Positions 1 to 30,788 of a stretch of 64,000 nucleotides of DNA are shown in pieces. This DNA is from Deltaproteobacteria bacterium (GTDB lineage: Bacteria > Myxococcota_A > Polyangia > Polyangiales > JADJMO01). Each line of letters begins with the position of its first letter. Within the stretch, counting starts at the first letter, position 1. The stretch spans positions 13,985-77,984 of the forward strand of contig JALHOE010000006.1 of the NCBI GenBank assembly GCA_022843175.1, written 5' to 3'. The translations under genes and the position numbers were made by a program. The notes under the pieces are model-generated. The model saw only the letters and a program-made list of their open reading frames with translations. It was not told the DNA's origin and did not search any database.

Positions 1-2358
1 GTGCAGGGCCGCGGCAGCGCCGCCAACAGCGCCATCTGTTACTGCCTCGGGATCACCGCGATCGATCCCATCGGCCGCGAGATGCTCTTCGAGCGGTTCC
101 TCTCCGAGGGCCGCGCGGAGCCGCCGGACATCGACCTCGACATCGAGCACGAGCGGCGCGAGGAGCTCCTCCAATACGTCTATCAACGCTACGGCCGCAC
201 CCACGCAGCGATGGTCGCGGCGGTGCACACCTACCAGCCGCGTGCGGCGGCCAAGGACGTGGCGCGCGTGCTCGGCCTGTCCGTCGAGCAGGGCGCCTCG
301 CTCGCGAGCCTGTGCGACCGCTTCGTTGGGATGGAGCCGTGGGGCGGCAGCCACCGCACCGGAGCCGCCGCGCCGGTGCCCGCACAGGGCCTCGACCTCC
401 GCCGCAACAAGGAGGACCGAGCCGCGCTCGGCAACGGCACGTGGCGCGAGGACTTCCTCCGCGAGCACCCGCGCAACACGGTCAAGAACGCGCTCCGTCC
501 CAAAGCACAGACCCACGAGAACGCCCCCGGCGACGGCTACGTCCATCGCATGGACAAAGACCGCCTCAAGGATCCGGAGTCCCTGCGGGCCGCCGGCCTC
601 GACCCGAACGACCGCCGCGTCGCGATGGTGCCCTGGTTCGTCGATCGCATGGTCGGCTTGCCGCGCCATCGCGCGATCCACACCGGCGGGTTCGTGCTGT
701 CGGAGCGTCCGATCGGCGAGGTGTGTCCGGTCGAGTGGGCGGCGATGCCCGGCCGCTCGATCCTCCAGTGGGAGAAGGACGACCTCTCCACGCTCGGCCT
801 CGTGAAGTTCGACCTCCTCGGTCTCGGCATGCTCACGGTCATCGCCAAGCACCTCGACCTCATCGAGCAACACCGCGGCGTGCGGCTCGACCTCTGGCAG
901 CTCCCCCACGAGGACGAGAGCGTGTTCGACATGATCTGCAAGGCAGACACGATCGGCCTCTTCCAGATCGAGTCCCGCGCGCAGATGAACACGTTGCCGC
1001 GCCTGCAGCCGCGCCAGTTCTACGACCTCGTGGTGGAGGTCGCGCTCATTCGGCCGGGGCCGATCCAGGGCGAGATGGTCCACCCCTACCTCCGTCGGCG
1101 CCGCGGCGAGGAGCCGATTACGTATCTCCACCCGGACCTCGAGCCGCACCTCGCGCGCACGCTCGGCGTGCCGCTGTTCCAAGAGCAGGGCATGAAGATC
1201 GCCATCGAGGTCGGCGGCTTCTCGCCGACCGAGGCCGACGAGCTGCGCCGGGCGATGGCGCACAAGCGCTCACGCAAGGCGATGAACGAGCTCGGCGAGA
1301 AGCTCATCTCGCGCATGACCGCCAAGGGCTACGACAGCGGGATCGCCGAACGGATCGTCAAGCAGCTCACCGCGTTCGCCGACTACGGCTTCCCCGAGAG
1401 CCACGCCGCGTCGTTCGCGCTGCTCGTGTGGGCGTCGGCGTATCTCAAGTACCACTACACGCCGGAGTTCCTCGCGGCGATCCTCAACTCGCAGCCGATG
1501 GGCTTCTACTCTGCATCCACGCTGGTCGAGGACGCGAAGCGCCACCACGTCGTCGTCCGCGCCCCCTGCGTGATGAGCTCCGAGTGGGACTGCACGCTGG
1601 AGCCCATCTCGCCGCTGACGGCGCCGCGCGGCGAGCTCCAGCCCTTCGCGACACGCATCGGCCTCCGCTACGTGCGCGGGCTCGGCGAGCGCACCAAGCC
1701 GTGGATCGCGCGGGCGATCTCCCCGCGACCGCGGTCGATCGCCGACTTCGTGCGGCGCGCCAGCCTCGAGCACGGCGGGCTCGACGAGGGGCAGCTCTTG
1801 TCGCTCGCGCACGCCGGCGCGTTCGACGCGCTCGAGCCGGAGCGACGCCGCGCGATCTGGGAGGTGATGCGCCTCGCGCGTCTGCCGGCGGGCCCCCTCG
1901 ATCTCCCCGGCATCGAGCGCGATCCGCCGCGGCTCCCGCAGCAGAGCGAGGCCGAGCTCGTGTCGGCAGACTTCCTGCGCGTGGGCCTCACCGCGCGCGA
2001 CCACCCGATGTCGTTCCTCCGCGGCGAGCTCGACGCGCGCGGCGTCGTCGCGGCGGTCGCGCTCGCCAAGTGCCACCGCCGGCAGGTGAAGGTGGCGGGC
2101 CTGGTGATCTGCCGCCAGCGTCCGGCCACCGCCAAGGGCTTCGTCTTCATCACGCTCGAGGACGAGGGCGGGATGGTCAACATCATCGTCGAGCCGCAGC
2201 TGTTCGAGCGTCAGCGCGGCGCGATCGTGCAGAACTCGGCGCTGGAGATCGACGGCGAGCTCGAGCGCCAGCAGGACGTCATCAACGTCAAGGCGAAGCA
2301 CATCCGAGCCCTCGCGCTGCCATGGGCAGCGGGGGCGAAGTCGCATGATTTCCACTGA
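1..2358 (+). CDS. dnaE2: Error-prone DNA polymerase DnaE2/ImuC, 5'-truncated by the window edge
   Basis: The frame is open from nt 1. The translation QGRGSAANSAICYCLGITAIDP...PDIDLDIEHERREE...IHTGGFVLS...FQIESRAQM...FPESHAASFALLVW is the Pol III alpha core in its DnaE2-type form. Stop is TGA at 2356-2358. Confidence 0.9.
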   Translation: MQGRGSAANSAICYCLGITAIDPIGREMLFERFLSEGRAEPPDIDLDIEHERREELLQYVYQRYGRTHAAMVAAVHTYQPRAAAKDVARVLGLSVEQGASLASLCDRFVGMEPWGGSHRTGAAAPVPAQGLDLRRNKEDRAALGNGTWREDFLREHPRNTVKNALRPKAQTHENAPGDGYVHRMDKDRLKDPESLRAAGLDPNDRRVAMVPWFVDRMVGLPRHRAIHTGGFVLSERPIGEVCPVEWAAMPGRSILQWEKDDLSTLGLVKFDLLGLGMLTVIAKHLDLIEQHRGVRLDLWQLPHEDESVFDMICKADTIGLFQIESRAQMNTLPRLQPRQFYDLVVEVALIRPGPIQGEMVHPYLRRRRGEEPITYLHPDLEPHLARTLGVPLFQEQGMKIAIEVGGFSPTEADELRRAMAHKRSRKAMNELGEKLISRMTAKGYDSGIAERIVKQLTAFADYGFPESHAASFALLVWASAYLKYHYTPEFLAAILNSQPMGFYSASTLVEDAKRHHVVVRAPCVMSSEWDCTLEPISPLTAPRGELQPFATRIGLRYVRGLGERTKPWIARAISPRPRSIADFVRRASLEHGGLDEGQLLSLAHAGAFDALEPERRRAIWEVMRLARLPAGPLDLPGIERDPPRLPQQSEAELVSADFLRVGLTARDHPMSFLRGELDARGVVAAVALAKCHRRQVKVAGLVICRQRPATAKGFVFITLEDEGGMVNIIVEPQLFERQRGAIVQNSALEIDGELERQQDVINVKAKHIRALALPWAAGAKSHDFH

Positions 2359-2374
2359 ACCGCGGCATGTCCAT

Positions 2375-2511
2375 GCCCGTGCCCGTGCCCGTGCCCGTGC
2401 CCGATTCCCACCGCGCTCGATCAAGCGCGTCGACTTCGCGTGAAGGCGGAGGAGGCCACGGACGTCGCTGACCCGACGGGCACGGGCACGGGCACGGGCA
2501 CGGGCACGGGC
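2375..2511. repeat. Inverted pair of hexanucleotide tandem arrays: (GCCCGT)~5 and (ACGGGC)6
   Basis: Read directly from the sequence. GCCCGT repeats run from 2375 to 2403. The exact reverse-complement unit ACGGGC occurs six times from 2476 to 2511. The two arrays are 72 nt apart. The region sits between the dnaE2 stop and the arsR-like start. Confidence 0.9.
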
Positions 2512-2569
2512 AACCACGCGATCGGAGCTCGCCCCCCCGATGAAATTCGCACGGGTCCCCTTGCCATTG

Positions 2570-2601
2570 TTCGATGAGCATCTAAATAGATACCCATCGA
2601 A
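2570..2601. promoter_or_regulatory. Imperfect 32-bp palindrome abutting the ArsR-family start codon (candidate autoregulatory operator)
   Basis: The sequence is TTCGATGagcATCTAaaTAGATaccCATCGAA. The outer 7-bp arms and inner 5-bp arms are exact reverse complements. The region is locally AT-richer than its surroundings. The last base is the A of the ATG at 2601. Confidence 0.4.
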
Positions 2602-2897
2602 TGACCGCGCCCTCCCCCTTCGCCGCCCTCGCCGACGAGACCCGCCGCGAGATCCTCGCGCTCCTGCGAGACGGCTCGCGTCCGGCGGGGGAGATCGCGG
2701 ACGCATTCGAGCTGTCGAAGCCGACCATCTCCCACCACCTCAAGGTGCTCGAGAGCGCCGGTCTCGTCCGGTCGGAACGGCGCGGCACCAGCATCGTCTA
2801 CACGCTGCAGTCCAACGTCCTCGAAGATCTCGCGCGCGGCCTCTACGACCTCGCCGCGGGGCTCGGGGGCCGCCGGAAGAAGAGGGTGAGCCCATGA
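2601..2897 (+). CDS. ArsR/SmtB-family (SdpR-like) winged-HTH transcriptional regulator
   Basis: 98 aa. The translation [50 protein letters not shown] is the canonical ArsR HTH_20 signature. Its stop overlaps the next start (ATGA at 2894-2897). Confidence 0.88.
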
Positions 2898-3535
2898 ACA
2901 AGTCTCGCATCGACGCCGTCTCCCTCGCGCTCCTCGGGCTCGCGTCGGCGATCACCGGCGCGGTCTACGGCCGGCTGCCGCAGCAGATGCCGGTGCACTT
3001 CAACCTCTACGGCAAGCCGGACGGCTGGATGGGTAAGCCCGTCGGCGCCTGGCTCCTCCTCGGGCTCACGCTCGTCACGTGGCTGCTCGTACGCTTCGGC
3101 GCTGCGCTCCTCCCGAAGCAGGCGCGCGAGCGCATGGCCGCGTCGCCGGTCGCGCTCGTCGGGCTCCTCACGGTCGGCTTCTTCGTCGGCCTCCAACTGC
3201 TCGTCCTCCACGCGGCGCTCACCTCTGCCGCATCGATGGGCAGCTCGTTCGGCGTGCTGTTCGGCGTCTACTGGATCGTCCTCGCCCAGGTGCTCCCGCG
3301 CGTGCGCCGCAATCCCTTCATCGGGATCCGCACCGCGTGGACGCTGAGCTCGGACGAGAACTGGGCGCGCACCCACCGCTTCGGCGCCCGGGCGTTCACC
3401 CTCGGCGGGCTCGTCGCGGTGCTCGCGGCGCTCGCCTCGATGCCGGCCATCGCGATCGGCGCGATCCTCGTCTCGGCGCTCGCGCCGGTGGTCTGGTCGT
3501 TCGTGGTAGCCCACCGCCTCCCGCCGGAGGCGTGA
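2894..3535 (+). CDS. SdpI/YhfL-family membrane protein (DUF1648 + SdpI domains)
   Basis: The start is an internal ATG of track ORF 2540..3535. It has multiple hydrophobic helices. [18 protein letters not shown] matches DUF1648 and [25 protein letters not shown] matches the SdpI motif. It is translationally coupled to the ArsR gene. Confidence 0.8.
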
Positions 3536-9380: not shown

Positions 9381-10112
9381 ATGTCCGAGGGCGACCGCGC
9401 GCTGATCGTCACGCCGACCTACAACGAGCGCGACAACCTCGAGCCGTTTCTCGAGGGTGTCTTCCGCTGGGCGCCCCGCGCCAATGTCCTCGTCGTCGAC
9501 GACAACAGTCCCGACGGCACCGGCAAGCTCGCCGACGAGATCGCCGCGCGCGATCCTCGCGTGAGCGTCATGCACCGGCCCGGCAAGATGGGCCTCGGCA
9601 GCGCCTACCGCGAGGCGTTCGCCAAGGGCCTCGCCGACCCGCGCTACGACTACTTCCTCGAGATGGACACCGACCTCTCGCACGACCCGCAGTACCTGCC
9701 GCAGTTCTTCCGCGCGCTCGACAGCGGCGCGGACGTGGTCATCGGCTCGCGCAACATTCCGGGCGGCGGCGTCGAGGGCTGGGGCGTCGGTCGCCACGTG
9801 CTGTCCAAGGGCGGCTCGCTCTACTCGCGCACGATCCTCGGCCTCGCGGTCCGCGATCTCACGAGCGGATACAAGGCCTTCCGCCGTCGCGCGCTCGAGG
9901 CGATCGACCTCGCGAGCATCCGCAGCGAGGGCTACTCGTTCCAGATCGAGATGACCTACCGCTTGCTCCGCAAGGGCTTCCGCGTCGAGGAGGTCCCGAT
10001 CATCTTCGTCGACCGCCGCCAGGGCGCTTCGAAGATGAGTCGGAAGATCTTCGCCGAGGCCATCGGCGTGGTGTGGAAGCTCCGCGCCGACGCCGTCCGC
10101 GGGAAGCTCTGA
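9381..10112 (+). CDS. Polyprenol/dolichol-phosphate mannosyltransferase (GT2, Dpm1/Ppm1-like)
   Basis: 243 aa. The translation is LIVTPTYNERDNLEPF...VLVVDDNSPDGTG...MDTDLSHDPQYLP...GSRNIPGGGVEGW. Confidence 0.88.
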   Translation: MSEGDRALIVTPTYNERDNLEPFLEGVFRWAPRANVLVVDDNSPDGTGKLADEIAARDPRVSVMHRPGKMGLGSAYREAFAKGLADPRYDYFLEMDTDLSHDPQYLPQFFRALDSGADVVIGSRNIPGGGVEGWGVGRHVLSKGGSLYSRTILGLAVRDLTSGYKAFRRRALEAIDLASIRSEGYSFQIEMTYRLLRKGFRVEEVPIIFVDRRQGASKMSRKIFAEAIGVVWKLRADAVRGKL

Positions 10113-10118
10113 CCGGAT

Positions 10119-10177
10119 GGGCGCTCGCTGACGCGCGCCTGTCTCGTCTCCACCGGCGCGCGCGTCAGCGAGCGCCT
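10119..10177. repeat. REP-like element, inverted pair (copies 1-2 of 6)
   Basis: GGGCGCTCGCTGACGCGCGCCT lies at 10119-10140 and GGCGCGCGCGTCAGCGAGCGCCT at 10155-10177. They are reverse complements of each other. The pair sits between convergent stops at 10112 and 10187. Confidence 0.85.
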
Positions 10178-10186
10178 ATTGGCACT

Positions 10187-10528: not shown

Positions 10529-12691
10529 ATGTCGCCCGAGCAGTTCGAACAAGGGCTGAATCCATCCCAGCGCGCCGCGGTTGTGCACGGCGACGGTCCG
10601 CTCCTGGTGCTCGCTGGCGCCGGGTCCGGCAAGACGCGGGTGATCACCATGCGCATCGCGCGCATGCTCGCGATGGGCGTGCCGGCGACGTCGATCCTCG
10701 CGGTGACCTTCACCAACAAGGCCGCCGGCGAGATGCACGAGCGCGTGATCGCGCTGACCGGCGCGCGCGCCGCGCAGGGGCTCACGATCTCCACCTTTCA
10801 CTCGTTCGGCCTCGGCTTCCTCCAGCGCGAGGCGCGCTACCTCGGGTTCGGGGGCGGGTTCACCATCTTCGACCAGTCCGACGCGGTCGGCACGCTCCGC
10901 GAGCTGATGCGCGAGCTGCACATCGACGACGCGCGCCGCGGAAGCGCCGACGACAGGGCCGGCGGGCGCAGGCTCGACGCGGCGGCGATCCTCAACCGCA
11001 TCTCGCTCGCGAAGAACGCGTTCCACACCCCCGAGTCAATGCCCGACGGCGGCGATCTCGAGGGCGACGCGGCGACGTATCAGGCGGCCGCCAAGCTCCT
11101 CTACGGCAAATACATCCGCGCGCTCAAGGGCTTCCACGCGCTCGACTTCGACGATCTGATCTGCGAGCCGGTGCACCTGCTCACGCGGTTCGCGGAGCTA
11201 CGCGACAAGTGGCAGCGTCGCTTCCGCTACATCCTGGTCGACGAATACCAGGACACCAACAAGGCGCAGCTCGAGCTCCTCCGCAACGTCGTCGGCAGCC
11301 ACCAGAACATCACCGTCGTCGGCGACGACGACCAATCGATCTACGCGTGGCGCGGCGCCGACGTGACCAACATCCTCTCCTTCGAGGAGCACTTCGCGGG
11401 CGCCAAAGTCGTGAAGTTGGAGCAGAACTATCGCTCCCACGCGCCGATCCTCGAAGCGGCCAACGCCGTCATCGGCGCGATGCCCAACAAGAAGTACAAG
11501 AAGGAGCTCTTCACCTCGAAGCACGGGGGCGAGAAGCTCCAGCTCGTCAACTGCGCGCTCCCCGAGGTCGAGGCGTCGTTCGTCGCGAGCGAGATCGAGC
11601 GACTGGTCACCGAGGGCAAGCGCCCGTCGGAGATCTCCGTGATCTACCGCTCCAACAAGCAGGCCGAGCTCATCGAGACCGCTCTTCGCGAACGCGGCAT
11701 CGCCTACGTGCTCGTCGGCGGGCAAGCGTTCTTCGAGCGCAAGGAGGTCAAGGATCTCCTCTCCTATCTCAAGCTCGCGATCCACCCGATGGACGAGATC
11801 GCGCTCCGCCGGATCATCAACTACCCGACCCGGGGCATCGGCGAGCAGGCGCTCGCGAAGCTCGAGGCCTACGCGATCGCGCGTGACGTCCCGCTGTTCC
11901 GCGCCGTGCAGCGCGCGAGCGAGATCGATCTGTCCCCCGCCGCGCGCGCCGGGTGCGCGGCCCTCGCAGACGTCGTCGTCGACGCCAAGGCAGCGCTCGA
12001 TCACGGCAAGCCGCCGGCGGTCGTCGCGCGCGAGCTGTGCGAGAAGGTTCGGCTCAAGGAGGATCTCTACGGCGGCTCGCCCACCGGCAACGCGGCCGAG
12101 AAGCGGTGGGGCAACGTCGAGAACCTCTTCCGCTCGCTCGAGCGCTACTACAAGCGCGCCGAGGAGTCCGCGTGGGACCTCGACGCCAAGCGCACGCCGT
12201 CGATCGCCGAGTTCCTCCATCGCCTCACGCTGCGGTTCGCAGACGAGGAAGAGGACAAGACCGAGGTCGTCACGCTCACCACGCTGCACGGCGCCAAGGG
12301 CCTCGAGTACGACGTCGTGTTCCTGATCGGGCTCGAAGAGGGCATCCTCCCTCACAAGCGCACGCTCGCTCCGAGCGTGACCGACGTCGTCGAGTTCAAG
12401 ACCGACGCGTCCGGCGCAGCGGTGCTCTCCGAGGACGGGATCGACGAGGAGCGCCGCCTCTTCTACGTCGGCGTCACCCGCGCCAAGGAGCGCCTCTACC
12501 TCTGCCGCGCGCGCGCCCGCGCCGCCCGCGGCCAGCCGGTCGCGCGCATCCCGTCCCGGTTCCTCGCCGACGTGCCCGAGCACCTCTGCGAGACCCGCGA
12601 GGTCGCGGAGGTGATCCGCCAGTCGCCCCAGCAGATGAAGCAGAAGACCGCGCAGGCCCTCTCCACCTTCGGGGCTCGCCCGAAGTTCTAG
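10529..12691 (+). CDS. ATP-dependent DNA helicase, UvrD/PcrA/Rep family (SF1)
   Basis: Motifs present are LVLAGAGSGKTRV (Walker A), ILVDEYQDTNKAQ, VGDDDQSIYAWRGA, TLHGAKGLEYDVVFL and FYVGVTRAKERLYL. I chose the ATG at 10529 (MSPEQFEQGLNPSQ) over the track start at 10466. Confidence 0.92.
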   Translation: MSPEQFEQGLNPSQRAAVVHGDGPLLVLAGAGSGKTRVITMRIARMLAMGVPATSILAVTFTNKAAGEMHERVIALTGARAAQGLTISTFHSFGLGFLQREARYLGFGGGFTIFDQSDAVGTLRELMRELHIDDARRGSADDRAGGRRLDAAAILNRISLAKNAFHTPESMPDGGDLEGDAATYQAAAKLLYGKYIRALKGFHALDFDDLICEPVHLLTRFAELRDKWQRRFRYILVDEYQDTNKAQLELLRNVVGSHQNITVVGDDDQSIYAWRGADVTNILSFEEHFAGAKVVKLEQNYRSHAPILEAANAVIGAMPNKKYKKELFTSKHGGEKLQLVNCALPEVEASFVASEIERLVTEGKRPSEISVIYRSNKQAELIETALRERGIAYVLVGGQAFFERKEVKDLLSYLKLAIHPMDEIALRRIINYPTRGIGEQALAKLEAYAIARDVPLFRAVQRASEIDLSPAARAGCAALADVVVDAKAALDHGKPPAVVARELCEKVRLKEDLYGGSPTGNAAEKRWGNVENLFRSLERYYKRAEESAWDLDAKRTPSIAEFLHRLTLRFADEEEDKTEVVTLTTLHGAKGLEYDVVFLIGLEEGILPHKRTLAPSVTDVVEFKTDASGAAVLSEDGIDEERRLFYVGVTRAKERLYLCRARARAARGQPVARIPSRFLADVPEHLCETREVAEVIRQSPQQMKQKTAQALSTFGARPKF

Positions 12692-16426: not shown

Positions 16427-16520
16427 TAGGCGCTCGCTGACGCGCGCGCCTATCCCGTCGCGCGCATGAGCCACGCAGGCGCGCGCGCAGCCAGATAGGC
16501 GCGCGCGTCAGCGAGCGCCT
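16427..16520. repeat. REP-like element, inverted pair plus a degenerate middle copy (copies 3-4 of 6)
   Basis: TAGGCGCTCGCTGACGCGCGCGCCTAT lies at 16427-16453 and ATAGGCGCGCGCGTCAGCGAGCGCCT at 16495-16520. A partial copy CAGGCGCGCGCGCAG lies around 16477-16491. The element sits between convergent stops at 16413 and 16540. Confidence 0.85.
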
Positions 16521-19652: not shown

Positions 19653-21077
19653 ATGCGCGACGCTGGAAAATTCCTCAAACACCTCATCTTCGCAGCAGTC
19701 GCAGTCGCAACCCTCATCCTCGGTTTCTCCGCGGCGTTGCCCGGGGAAGCGCGAGCTGCCGACCGTGTGGTCGTCTTTCATGCCGAGGGCGATGGCGCCG
19801 ACGCCATCGCCGACGACGTCAAGGACGGGATGCCCAAGGGGCTCGTCGCCGGCGATCCGAAGAAGTTCGAGACCGCGCTCGGCAAGGCCGGTCACAAGGG
19901 CGCGATGGGCAAGGCGCTCGACAGCACCAAGACGCGCGACAAGCTGGTGGAGAAGATCCGCAAGGCCGCGCAGTCCGCGAAGGCCGACGTCGTCGTCGTC
20001 ATTCGCGTGAAGAAGAACAAGAAGGATCGGACGGTCACCCTCCTCGTCGTCGATCCCGCGTCGAGCGCGCTCGCCCGCGAGGACGAGATCACCCTTCCGC
20101 TCAAGAAGGGCAAGGACGACAGCAAGGCGGTGATCGCCTCGGTGACGCCCGCGCTCGAGAAGTTCGGCACCGCGACGCCGCCCCCGCCGCCGCCGAAGAA
20201 GGACGACGACAAGAAGGACGACAAGAAGGACGACAAGAAAGACGATAAGAAGGACGACGACGACGACGACAAGAAGAAGGACGACAAGAAGGACGACGAC
20301 GACAAGAAGAAGGACGAGCCCGCGCCGTCCGACCGCAAGGTCTCCGATCCGGCCCACTCGCTCTTCGTCATCGGCGCGGGCGTCGAGCTCGGCATCCGGC
20401 AGTTCGAGTACAACCAGCCGATCACCAAGAACCTCCGCGCCTACCGAGTCGTCGGAGCGCCGATGCTGGGCCTCAACGGCGAGCTCTATCCCCTCGCCGG
20501 GAGCAAGGGACCGCTCGCGGGCATCGGCATCATCGCGAACTACGCCCAGGCGCTCGCGCTCCAGTCGGCCGCGGCCGGCGGGGCCAAGGTGTCGACGCGC
20601 TGGAACCGCTACCTGATCGGACTTCGCTATCGGATCGTGCTCAGCGACAAGGGCGCATACATCGCGCCGACCGTCGCCTACGGCGGCCAGAACTTCACGT
20701 TCAGCGGCCTCGACGACAAGACCAACCGCGAGTCACCGGCCGCGCGCTACAGCTACTTCCGACTCGGAATCGACGGGCGAATCCCCCTCGGCCCCGTCGG
20801 GATCATGGCGGGGTTCGGCTACCTGGTGACCTCGGTGCCCAAGGGCAACGAGAACATCGAGCTCGTGTCCGGTCGCTTCCCCAACGTCAGCGTCGGCGGC
20901 ATCGACGCCGACATCGGGCTCGGGATTGGTGTGACCAAGGGCCTCGAGGCACGCTTGATGTTCCACTACTCGCGCTTCTTCTACTCCATGAATCCCACGC
21001 CGGGCGACACGTACGTGGCCGGCGGCGCGCTCGATCAGCTCTCCAGCCTTCATATTGGAGCTGCGTATGTCTACTAG
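19653..21077 (+). CDS. Outer-membrane beta-barrel protein with N-terminal soluble domain and K/D-rich linker
   Basis: The ATG at 19653 gives MRDAGKFLKHLIFAAVAVATLILGFSAALPGEARA, which reads as a signal peptide. A PPPPPPKKDDDKKDDKKDD... linker follows. The C-terminal half has alternating beta strands and ends in IGAAYVY (terminal aromatic). It is the tail of track ORF 17982..21077. Confidence 0.75.
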   Translation: MRDAGKFLKHLIFAAVAVATLILGFSAALPGEARAADRVVVFHAEGDGADAIADDVKDGMPKGLVAGDPKKFETALGKAGHKGAMGKALDSTKTRDKLVEKIRKAAQSAKADVVVVIRVKKNKKDRTVTLLVVDPASSALAREDEITLPLKKGKDDSKAVIASVTPALEKFGTATPPPPPPKKDDDKKDDKKDDKKDDKKDDDDDDKKKDDKKDDDDKKKDEPAPSDRKVSDPAHSLFVIGAGVELGIRQFEYNQPITKNLRAYRVVGAPMLGLNGELYPLAGSKGPLAGIGIIANYAQALALQSAAAGGAKVSTRWNRYLIGLRYRIVLSDKGAYIAPTVAYGGQNFTFSGLDDKTNRESPAARYSYFRLGIDGRIPLGPVGIMAGFGYLVTSVPKGNENIELVSGRFPNVSVGGIDADIGLGIGVTKGLEARLMFHYSRFFYSMNPTPGDTYVAGGALDQLSSLHIGAAYVY

Positions 21078-29644: not shown

Positions 29645-30730
29645 ATGGCGACCACTCCCTCCTCGAAGATGAACCAGATCTACATCGGCATCGGCGCGCT
29701 CGCCGTGGTCGGTGCGCTCTACTACATGAACACCAAGAAGGAGGCGGCCAACACCAACACCACCTTCACTCAGGGTTCGAAGGAGGGCGCGGCTCCGCAG
29801 GTGAAGGTCGTCCCCGAAGAGATCGACAAGCTCACGCTCCGGGCCAAGGACAAGCCGGAGATCGTCCTCGAGAAGAAGGACGGCAACTGGACGATGGCCG
29901 CGCCGACGGCGGGCGCGAAGGTGCAGAAGAGCGCGGTCGACGACCTGCTCAACGGCCTCAAGGGGCTCACCTTCAAGGAGCGGATCGCCACCGGCGCGAA
30001 CCAGTTCGCCGCCTACGAGCTCGACGAGGGCAAGGGCATCCACGTCGTCGCCACCAAGGCCGGCGCCCCGATCGTCGACCTCTGGCTCGGTGCGACCAAG
30101 TCGCGCGGCCAGATGGCGCGCCTCGGCAACGACGCGGTCGGCAACGTGTGGAGCGTCACCGGCGTGTCCTCATGGACGTTCGACAAGGCGCCGAAGGACG
30201 TGCGCGAGAAGAAGATCTGGGATCTCTCCCGCGACAACATCACCACCATCGAGCTCAAGGACGCGAAGGGCGGCTTCGTGTTCACCAAGAACGAGTCCGC
30301 GGCCGGCGACGCCGGCGCCACCGACGCGTCGGCGGGCGACGCCGGCGTCAAAGCGGCGTGGAGCGGCACCCTCGACGGCAAGCCGATCGCCGGCCTCGAC
30401 GCCGCCAAGGTCGACGACCTGTTGAGCGCGTTCACCCTCGGCGGCGTGCTCAACGCCGACGACTTCGGCGACGGCAAGTCCGACGCCGAGACCGGGCTCA
30501 AGTCGCCCGAGGCCACGGTCCTCTCGTTCAAGGGCAAGGACGGCGTCGCGCAGAAGATCACCCTCGGCAAGAGCGACGGCACCAAGCGCTACGCCCTCCG
30601 CGAGGGCGACAGCACGGTGTACCTCCTCGCCGAGAGCCCCTCGGGCTGGGCCGAGGCGGGCGTCGACAAGTTCGTTCCCGCGCCGACCGCCGGCGACGCC
30701 GGCGACGCCGGCACCGACGCGAAGAAATAG
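29645..30730 (+). CDS. DUF4340-domain protein
   Basis: 361 aa with an N-terminal TM segment (IYIGIGALAVVGALYYM). The repeated beta-rich modules (NWTMAAPTAGAKVQKSAVDDLLNGLKGL) are typical of DUF4340 genes that follow gldG-like genes. Confidence 0.7.
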   Translation: MATTPSSKMNQIYIGIGALAVVGALYYMNTKKEAANTNTTFTQGSKEGAAPQVKVVPEEIDKLTLRAKDKPEIVLEKKDGNWTMAAPTAGAKVQKSAVDDLLNGLKGLTFKERIATGANQFAAYELDEGKGIHVVATKAGAPIVDLWLGATKSRGQMARLGNDAVGNVWSVTGVSSWTFDKAPKDVREKKIWDLSRDNITTIELKDAKGGFVFTKNESAAGDAGATDASAGDAGVKAAWSGTLDGKPIAGLDAAKVDDLLSAFTLGGVLNADDFGDGKSDAETGLKSPEATVLSFKGKDGVAQKITLGKSDGTKRYALREGDSTVYLLAESPSGWAEAGVDKFVPAPTAGDAGDAGTDAKK

Positions 30731-30788
30731 GCGCGCGCGTCAGCGAGCGCCTACGCGAAGAAACAGGCGCGCGCGTCAGCGAGCGCCT
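30717..30788. repeat. 36-bp tandem duplication carrying two direct REP-like copies (copies 5-6 of 6)
   Basis: ACGCGAAGAAATAGGCGCGCGCGTCAGCGAGCGCCT at 30717-30752 is followed immediately by the same 36-mer with a single T>C change at 30753-30788. Unit 1 contains the TAG stop of the DUF4340 gene. Unit 2 contains the last codons and stop of galE on the other strand. Confidence 0.9.

Follow-up and report, generated by a model that had tools for sequence, protein, structure and literature searches.

The dnaE2–arsR intergenic region

The DNA considered here, referred to below as the window, is a stretch of 64 000 nt from a deltaproteobacterium of the Polyangiales (GenBank assembly GCA_022843175.1, contig JALHOE010000006.1, positions 13 985–77 984). 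It opens with the 3′ part of dnaE2, the gene of an error-prone DNA polymerase of the III alpha type (positions 1–2358, plus strand), which ends in a TGA stop codon at 2356–2358. An inverted repeat begins 9 nt past this stop; its arms are two hexanucleotide microsatellites, the first perfect GCCCGT unit lying 16 nt past the stop. From the end of the inverted repeat it is 48 nt to a −35-like hexamer and 88 nt to the next start codon, an ATG. This inverted hexamer pair, its relatives in other genomes and its likely role between the two transcription units are the subject of the present analysis.

Tandem Repeats Finder detected two perfect period-6 arrays, at 2374–2403 (5.0 copies) and at 2476–2512 (6.2 copies), both with 100% matches. 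The inverted-repeat search extended them to 36-nt arms, 2368–2403 and 2477–2512, that are 94% complementary (30 nt perfectly so) with 73 nt between them. The left, C-rich arm reads as a degenerate unit TGTCCA followed by (TGCCCG)x5, and the right, G-rich arm as (CGGGCA)x6, both on the plus strand; with the degenerate outer unit counted, there are six units in each arm. The spacer (2404–2476) is predicted by RNA and DNA folds to form a branched multi-helix junction, and both minimum-energy folds contain a mini-hairpin at 2412–2429 made of CGCGCT (2412–2417), a 6-nt loop and AGCGCG (2424–2429). The inverted repeat was also listed with perfect sub-registers of 30, 24, 18 and 12 nt, each offset by 6 nt; the initial annotation, made from the sequence alone, had described a stem able to shift register, and in this as in its account of the unit, copy numbers, spacing and mini-hairpin it was right in every detail.

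The inverted hexamer pair is highly non-random, and chance is excluded. Searching for the 18-mer (ACGGGC)3 with up to three mismatches gave eight matches, all of them within the two arrays, while 0.37 were expected and none of 100 shuffled sequences reached eight. The RNA fold has a free energy of −117.5 kcal/mol versus −80.7 ± 4.5 kcal/mol for shuffles (z = −8.15); for the DNA fold z = −8.07. A covariance scan of positions 2000–3000 against Rfam returned three chance-level matches (E = 1.8–7.3, far below gathering scores), none of them over 2368–2512.

A GC-rich stem placed 9 nt past a stop codon brings to mind a canonical Rho-independent terminator of dnaE2. Such a terminator is, however, very unlikely here: the scan of 2000–3200 found no terminators, there is no T run after the stem on either strand (none in the downstream sequence AACCACGCGATCGG), the loop has 73 nt instead of the usual 3–8 nt, and a typical terminator stem is several times shorter. 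Thus, of the terminator or insulator role proposed in the initial annotation, the canonical terminator features did not stand, whereas the position did: the element lies between a stop codon and a promoter-like site, and, as shown below, the class to which it belongs hugs stop codons.

The product of dnaE2 carries the Pfam domains DNA_pol3_alpha, finger, HHH_6 and OB, and its homologues bear the name ‘error-prone DNA polymerase’ in their sources; the fragment encoded in the window is 100% identical to a protein of 1172 aa (P0001, a singleton), and the nearest named homologues belong to Polyangiales and Myxococcota metagenome-assembled genomes. The first downstream gene (2601–2897, plus strand) encodes an ArsR-family helix-turn-helix regulator of 98 aa (Pfam HTH_5, 4.8e-18; HTH_20). 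Its end is overlapped by the gene of its operon partner, an SdpI/DUF1648 membrane protein (2894–3535, plus strand; Pfam SdpI, 1.2e-17; DUF1648). This arsR–sdpI gene pair follows dnaE2 in most relatives, with the order kept.

A promoter-like site is visible by eye upstream of arsR on the plus strand (TTGCCA at 2561–2566, a gap of 16 nt and TAAATA at 2583–2588), under the threshold of the promoter scan; the sole promoter-like match of that scan in 2000–3200 was on the minus strand, inside the end of dnaE2. Overlapping the site is an operator-like palindrome, TTCGATGAGCATCTA/TAGATACCCATCGAA (2570–2601, plus strand), which was found by the inverted-repeat search and is separate from the hexamer element. 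The sole conserved part of the dnaE2–arsR spacer is the block CTTG..TTCGATG.G.ATCTAAATAGA, containing the promoter and operator, and the palindrome itself is kept in four relatives (L001, 3829–3858; L002, about 10000–10032; L125; L126). Since this conserved block occupies 2561–2601, the hexamer hairpin has the end of dnaE2 on one side and an independent promoter region on the other. The palindrome (TTCGATG.G.ATCTA/TAGA....CATCGAA) ends at the arsR start codon; judging from its sequence, it is probably the autoregulatory operator of an ArsR/SdpR-type repressor with a near-leaderless transcript.

Recurrence of the hexamer pair in other genomes

The initial annotation had suggested looking for other (GCCCGT)n/(ACGGGC)n pairs, and this search was productive. 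When one genome per species was scanned for (ACGGGC)4, at least 120 loci came up, mostly in Myxococcota, Actinomycetota and Planctomycetota. About half of the arrays listed were coding (HG, TG, PV, RA or PC dipeptide repeats), and about 10 of the loci had an inverted partner; among the remaining, non-coding matches listed, a partner of the same hexamer was present within 600 nt at L025, L031, L032, L073, L121, L023, L098, L111, L114, L010 and L091, and related genomes had several (ACGGGC)4 matches each. In viral contigs, taken as a control, none of 36 hexamer arrays had an inverted partner. A metagenome scan limited to the topology of the window, i.e. with the C-rich array first, (GCCCGT)3-N60-90-(ACGGGC)3, gave 97 contigs with a gap of 60–90 nt. 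The pairs are hosted by Myxococcota, Planctomycetota and a low-GC Chlamydiae-like lineage.

This recurrence bears on the suspicion that the pair is an assembly artefact, which could arise as the source of the window appears to be a metagenome-assembled genome. We find the suspicion hardly credible: the 97 metagenome contigs and about ten genome assemblies with the same layout are independent and come from different projects, the pairs are embedded in long contigs and flanked on either side by intact genes, and nine loci were recovered in identical form from independent samples.

Clustering of the metagenome loops gave 65 singletons and several families. Many of the metagenome arrays hold exactly four C/G tracts (26 nt); one group of pairs has common arms of ∼35 nt, CCGTACG(CGTGCC)3.5ACACGATC, around variable cores; and many pairs of the class (Family D) have only 3.5 units, i.e. 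three tracts. These tract numbers matter for the idea of a G-quadruplex or i-motif element, in which either array would fold by itself on the strand rich in G (the plus strand at 2477–2512, the minus strand at 2374–2403) and serve as a DNA or RNA quadruplex roadblock or as a protein-binding site, the hairpin being a competing state. The unit (GGGCAC)n does fit the G3N3 quadruplex-type motif, with six G3 tracts separated by 3-nt spacers in the right arm and five in the left; the arrays with exactly four tracts agree with it, and analogous heptamers form G-quadruplex and i-motif structures in vitro (PMC4692102). On the other hand, although each array alone may form a quadruplex, the two arms are perfectly complementary within a single strand, and the predicted hairpin should outcompete a three-tetrad quadruplex; three tracts, as in Family D, are too few for an intramolecular quadruplex; and the paired units GTCCGA, GATTGCA and CGTCGA, described next, have no G-tracts. 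On balance, a predicted role as a quadruplex appears improbable.

Pairing of short tandem arrays was seen with other units as well. In about 1 Mb of fetched DNA surveyed for perfect arrays of 4- to 12-mers, 36 of 208 arrays had an inverted partner within 400 nt, other units included: (GATTGCA)n occurs as a pair twice in L026, (CGTGCT)n in L103 and (CGTCGA)n in L122. In L002, a relative with the dnaE2 locus, an inverted (GTCCGA)n/(TCGGAC)n hairpin (11003–11150; −103.9 kcal/mol, z = −5.0) follows an sdpI-like gene two genes past dnaE2. Moreover, dnaE2 itself contains in-frame inverted heptamer arrays in L002 (8814–8898) and in L003 (6965–7030, and a further site homologous to that of L002). These insertions, with the units (GGTCGAA)n...(TTCGACC)n and (CAGTCGA)n...(TCGACTG)n, add ∼20–35 residues that are absent from the protein of the window and are reminiscent of the palindromic elements of Rickettsia. 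Inverted pairs of microsatellites are thus characteristic of these genomes in general, with no tie to dnaE2 in particular.

Dispersed families

Some of the hexamer pairs belong to repeat families. In Family A, 14 copies (L148, L156, L163, L167, L169, L170, L181, L182, L199, L200, L206, L217, L218 and L219; see also L073, L197, L221 and L138) have a common 51-nt loop and unrelated flanks, and they are bounded by outer terminal inverted repeats of 19 nt, CTAGGGNNTGTCCCTGAAT...ATTCAGGGACANNCCCTAG. A copy consists of the outer repeat CTAGGGNNTGTCCCTGAAT, an inner segment CCCGTACA, arms of (CGTGCC)4-5 and the conserved 51-nt core. Because the loop and the outer terminal repeats are shared amid unrelated flanks, Family A is, as far as its sequences tell, a dispersed element resembling MITEs (miniature inverted-repeat transposable elements). 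CTAG stands at both ends of the copies and could be either a target duplication or a piece of the repeat. Membership of the window copy in Family A was considered and rejected, as it has no match to the outer repeat CTAGGGNNTGTCCCTGAAT.

Copies of a Gemmataceae type (L098, 4716–4863; L111, L114, L185 and L193) have a 9-nt loop, ATTCCAGAC, and share the palindromic flanks GGTTCAGAAACGGGCCGTTTCAGGTGGCGCGGGT. Together they make up a dispersed palindromic element that is centred on the hexamer array.

Many copies of the same GC-rich hexamer arrays were also seen in contigs of 40–46% GC, one of which is labelled as a Chlamydiae metagenome-assembled genome; in an AT-rich genome such arrays are striking. 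The contigs concerned are L010 (7398–7640), L129, L135, L139, L149, L151, L191, L201, L204, L208, L213 and L224. Their arrays are nested with modules of 40–60 nt in direct as well as inverted order; 16.7 units were counted in one of the arrays. A different kind of composite was observed at L091 (4044–4610), where a higher-order repeat of ∼95 nt contains arrays whose unit shifts from CGTGCC to CTTGCC to CTTGAC between copies; inverted arrays (GGCAAG, GTCAAG, CGGGCA) come next, so that a long composite hairpin results, 27 nt past a stop codon.

Location relative to genes and dynamics of the arms

Gene neighbours of the pairs were determined from open reading frames (ORFs) called on high-GC contigs with a filter on GC content at third codon positions (GC3); start codons were taken into account, neighbours were limited to 300 nt and duplicates were removed. 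Adjacent stop codons were found at a median distance of 28 nt (n = 57, mostly 2–60 nt) from the element, and adjacent start codons at a median distance of 84 nt (n = 44). With a neighbour within 300 nt on either side, the arrangement was convergent in 10 cases, tandem in 19 and divergent in 4; the stop was the nearer neighbour in 14 of the 19 tandem ones. At L025 two convergent stops flank the element at distances of 3 and 9 nt. The pair in the window obeys the same rule, being 9–15 nt from the stop and 88 nt from the next start.

The two arms tend to match in length. Perfect arrays were equally long in both arms in 30 of 92 pairs versus 10.7 expected, the maximum in 2000 permutations being 21. 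This equality argues for concerted copying of the arms or for selection on pairing. Strong expansions of one arm do exist (12 versus 5.7 units; 4 versus 16.7 units), thus slippage occurs over evolutionary time. Nine loci of other elements could be compared between two samples each, at 99.3% identity or above; the copy numbers were identical in all nine, a test of limited power, and we thus saw no sign of hypervariability.

Orthologous dnaE2 loci

In the protein collection, the best DnaE2 match below 100% has 88% amino acid identity. In the closest relative, L001 (88% identity), the spacer between dnaE2 and arsR measures 113 nt and has no arrays; in L125 (86% identity) the spacer is 49 nt long, also with no arrays; and in L002, L126 and L128 (83–87%) it is about 400 nt long and contains a small ORF on the minus strand. 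The window, with 100% identity, has a spacer of 242 nt that includes the hexamer pair. When the spacers of the window, L001 and L002 were aligned, only the arsR operator/promoter block matched and the remainder was too diverged; judging from these sequences, the spacer is highly plastic among relatives. Taking away the 145-nt inverted repeat from the 242 nt leaves 97 nt, close to the length in L001. As the orthologous spacers have no arrays and the remainder resembles that of L001, the hexamer pair is probably a lineage-specific gain.

A short (TTCGACC)2.5 run was seen in the array-free spacer of L001 (3755–3780). Its heptamer is identical to that of the in-frame dnaE2 insertion of L002, which suggests, at the level of sequence, that TTCGACC is a recurrent simple sequence repeat (SSR) in this clade.

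Two relatives have long hairpins of other kinds within ∼10 nt of the dnaE2 stop. In L127 (3900–4112; −117.6 kcal/mol, z = −9.9) the arms hold tandem octamers, CACGGAGG x2 and CCTCCGTG x2, with about 170 nt between them; in L003 the hairpin is GATGGCACAGGGAG...CTCCCTGTGCCATC (9683–9892, z = −4.3). They are homologous neither to one another nor to the element of the window. The contig of L127 terminates exactly at the right arm of its hairpin.

The element immediately adjoins dnaE2, and these hairpins, as well as the palindromic insertions within dnaE2 of relatives, would agree with a regulatory or genome-stability element dedicated to the SOS mutasome gene and linked to DnaE2, either as a site where replication or recombination pauses or as a contingency switch prone to slippage. 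The initial annotation had raised both possibilities. We consider them very unlikely. The closest relatives, L001 and L125, have no hairpin at the site; the same hexamer pair stands beside unrelated genes in ∼100 loci; and the similar pair in L002 follows the sdpI-like gene. As to a contingency switch, the arrays, placed downstream of the stop codon (2358) and upstream of the −35-like site (2561), are outside the ORF and the −35/−10 spacer, therefore a change in unit number cannot switch expression by a frameshift or by promoter spacing; the identical copy numbers at the nine loci sampled twice speak against it as well.

Comparison with known repeat systems

The initial annotation did not recognize the feature as a known element type; however, close precedents have been published. 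Rehm et al. (2015) described arrays of (GGGAATC)n in Xanthomonas and of GGGGA(C/T)T in Nostoc (PMC4692102). The arrays of Xanthomonas are intergenic in 89–93% of cases, lie at a mean distance of 28 nt from the upstream ORF versus 160 nt from the downstream ORF, form 70–75 inverted pairs per genome and are scarce between divergent ORFs; most arrays are transcribed (PMC4692102).

The element of the window has much in common with this class: a perfect tandem array (100% matches) of a 6–7-nt unit with a G3 tract, at least four tracts, and a pair of arrays, one on each strand, that can fold into a stem-loop or cruciform (PMC4692102). It is likewise intergenic and nearer to the upstream stop, and the hexamer pairs in general show the same bias (medians of 28 versus 84 nt) and the same scarcity between divergent genes. 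There are differences too. The unit is a hexamer, GGGCAC, and not a GGGNATC heptamer; the hosts are Myxococcota, Planctomycetota and the Chlamydiae-like lineage; the window pair has the C-rich array first, whereas the pairs in the paper are convergent; and MITE-like families with outer terminal repeats, to which part of the hexamer pairs belong, are not described in PMC4692102.

Cyanobacterial short tandemly repeated repetitive (STRR) sequences, e.g. the one between hupS and hupL, are also tandem repeats of short units that form an intergenic hairpin near the 3′-end of the preceding gene; roles in transcript stability or termination have been proposed for them, neither proven (PMC2670836). Their units have 7 bp and are richer in AT, their hairpins are far weaker (about −10 kcal/mol is quoted) and their host phylum is another one (PMC2670836).

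The element resembles REPINs, hairpin-forming doublets of repetitive extragenic palindromic (REP) sequences, in its two inverted arms, a spacer of ∼70 nt, a long hairpin and an extragenic location that is often downstream of genes (PMC3116915). In REPINs, however, the arms are imperfect palindromes with conserved tags, near-identical copies number from tens to hundreds, and there is an association with REP-associated tyrosine transposases (RAYTs); the arms in the window are non-palindromic microsatellites, seen as a single copy in 64 kb. With MITEs the element shares its small size, the absence of coding sequence, the flanking inverted repeats and the appearance of a lineage-specific insertion; unlike MITEs, it has no outer terminal repeats, no clear target-site duplication and no homologous copy in a comparison of 103 loops. 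With intrinsic terminators it shares a GC-rich stem directly after a stop codon and little else, having no U-tract, a branched 73-nt loop and a stem of 30–36 bp.

The feature in the window is therefore a hexamer variant of a class that has been reported already. New are the unit, the host phyla and the evidence for a dispersed, MITE-like nature of some members; our literature search found no paper mentioning this hexamer repeat in bacteria.

Interpretation

The explanation we favour, with a probability of about 0.55, is that the inverted G3N3 hexamer pair was gained as a selfish or neutral repeat and acts as a hairpin barrier or insulator in the 3′ untranslated region (3′ UTR) of dnaE2, with no specific tie to DnaE2-dependent mutagenesis. 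The gain would be a recent one, in this lineage. A small palindromic element may have been inserted; alternatively, an array may have grown by local slippage and one arm then been copied from the other by template switching. Copying from arm to arm would also keep both arms at six units.

From its position and stability we infer that the element is transcribed as part of the 3′ UTR of dnaE2, where it would fold into a GC-rich RNA stem of 30–36 bp. This stem may block 3′-to-5′ exonucleases, be cut by RNase III, or both, and it may hinder read-through into the arsR–sdpI promoter 48 nt downstream. REP hairpins stabilise the mRNA upstream of them, and by analogy the element would act like a REP-type 3′ hairpin or an insulator rather than as a terminator composed of a hairpin and a U-tract.

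One could also suppose that the element does nothing for its host: that it is a decayed or minimal MITE- or REPIN-like palindrome, or a by-product of slippage and template switching, tolerated at safe sites at gene 3′-ends. This is the main rival. It is compatible with the origin that we favour, so the two readings are not mutually exclusive, but as a complete account we regard it as clearly less probable, though far from negligible. The dispersal of some hexamer-pair families, with the 14 copies of Family A amid unrelated flanks and within outer repeats, is in its favour, as are the common flanks of the Gemmataceae copies, the palindromic heptamer-array insertions in frame within dnaE2 of relatives and the absence of the element from the closest orthologous spacers. 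The window copy itself, however, has no such outer repeats, no homologous loop elsewhere and no further copy in 64 kb, and the clustering of pairs 2–60 nt past stops with scarcity between divergent genes is predicted by a function at the 3′-end as well.

Several observations weigh against the explanation that we favour. A T-tract after the stem is missing on both strands, the loop spans 73 nt and the terminator scan was empty. The mobility of the window copy is unproven: the 64-kb window contains no second copy of the pair, the loop is a singleton with no homologue among the 103 other loops compared, and there is no clear target-site duplication, the flanks AACCGCG (2358–2364) and AACCACGCG (2512–2520) making only a weak imperfect direct repeat. 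Proximity to stop codons could reflect where insertions are tolerated and not function, and the gene calls on foreign contigs depend on the crude GC3-based ORF filter. Finally, the authors of the Xanthomonas study identified no function for their arrays (PMC4692102).

Taken alone, the element of the window is of little consequence, its role probably being no more than to cap the dnaE2 transcript and keep it apart from the next operon. The class is of wider interest. Hairpins of inverted SSRs are not peculiar to Xanthomonas and Nostoc: the hexamer version is common in Myxococcota and Planctomycetota, is present in a low-GC lineage, obeys the rule of ∼28 nt after the stop as in Xanthomonas, and in some genomes is clearly dispersed and MITE-like. 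It thus offers a larger and more diverse data set, together with candidate mobile families, for the question standing since 2015 of what these repeats do and why their arms match.

A bolder and rather doubtful conjecture is that the arm pair (TGCCCG)n/(CGGGCA)n is the functional module of undescribed self-propagating hairpin elements that cross phyla, occur bare or with outer repeats like those of insertion sequences, have their arms equalized by copying, and land or grow after stop codons and sometimes in frame inside genes such as dnaE2. If true, such elements would provide gene 3′-ends with hairpins de novo, i.e. would be a mechanism by which terminators or insulators are born.

Other repeats in the window

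A second dispersed family was observed within the window. The 20-mer GCGCGCGTCAGCGAGCGCCT occurs six times versus 0.36 expected, at sites 10117–10179, 16428–16520 and 30717–30788. Two of the occurrences are inverted pairs that would fold as hairpins, their arms measuring 22 and 38 nt, and in another a 36-mer is duplicated in tandem; the family has a REP- or REPIN-like look. Complex low-complexity repeats with periods of 12, 36, 39 and 51, of the GACGACAAGAAG type, were seen at 20196–20317; presumably, they belong to a coding segment rich in Asp and Lys.

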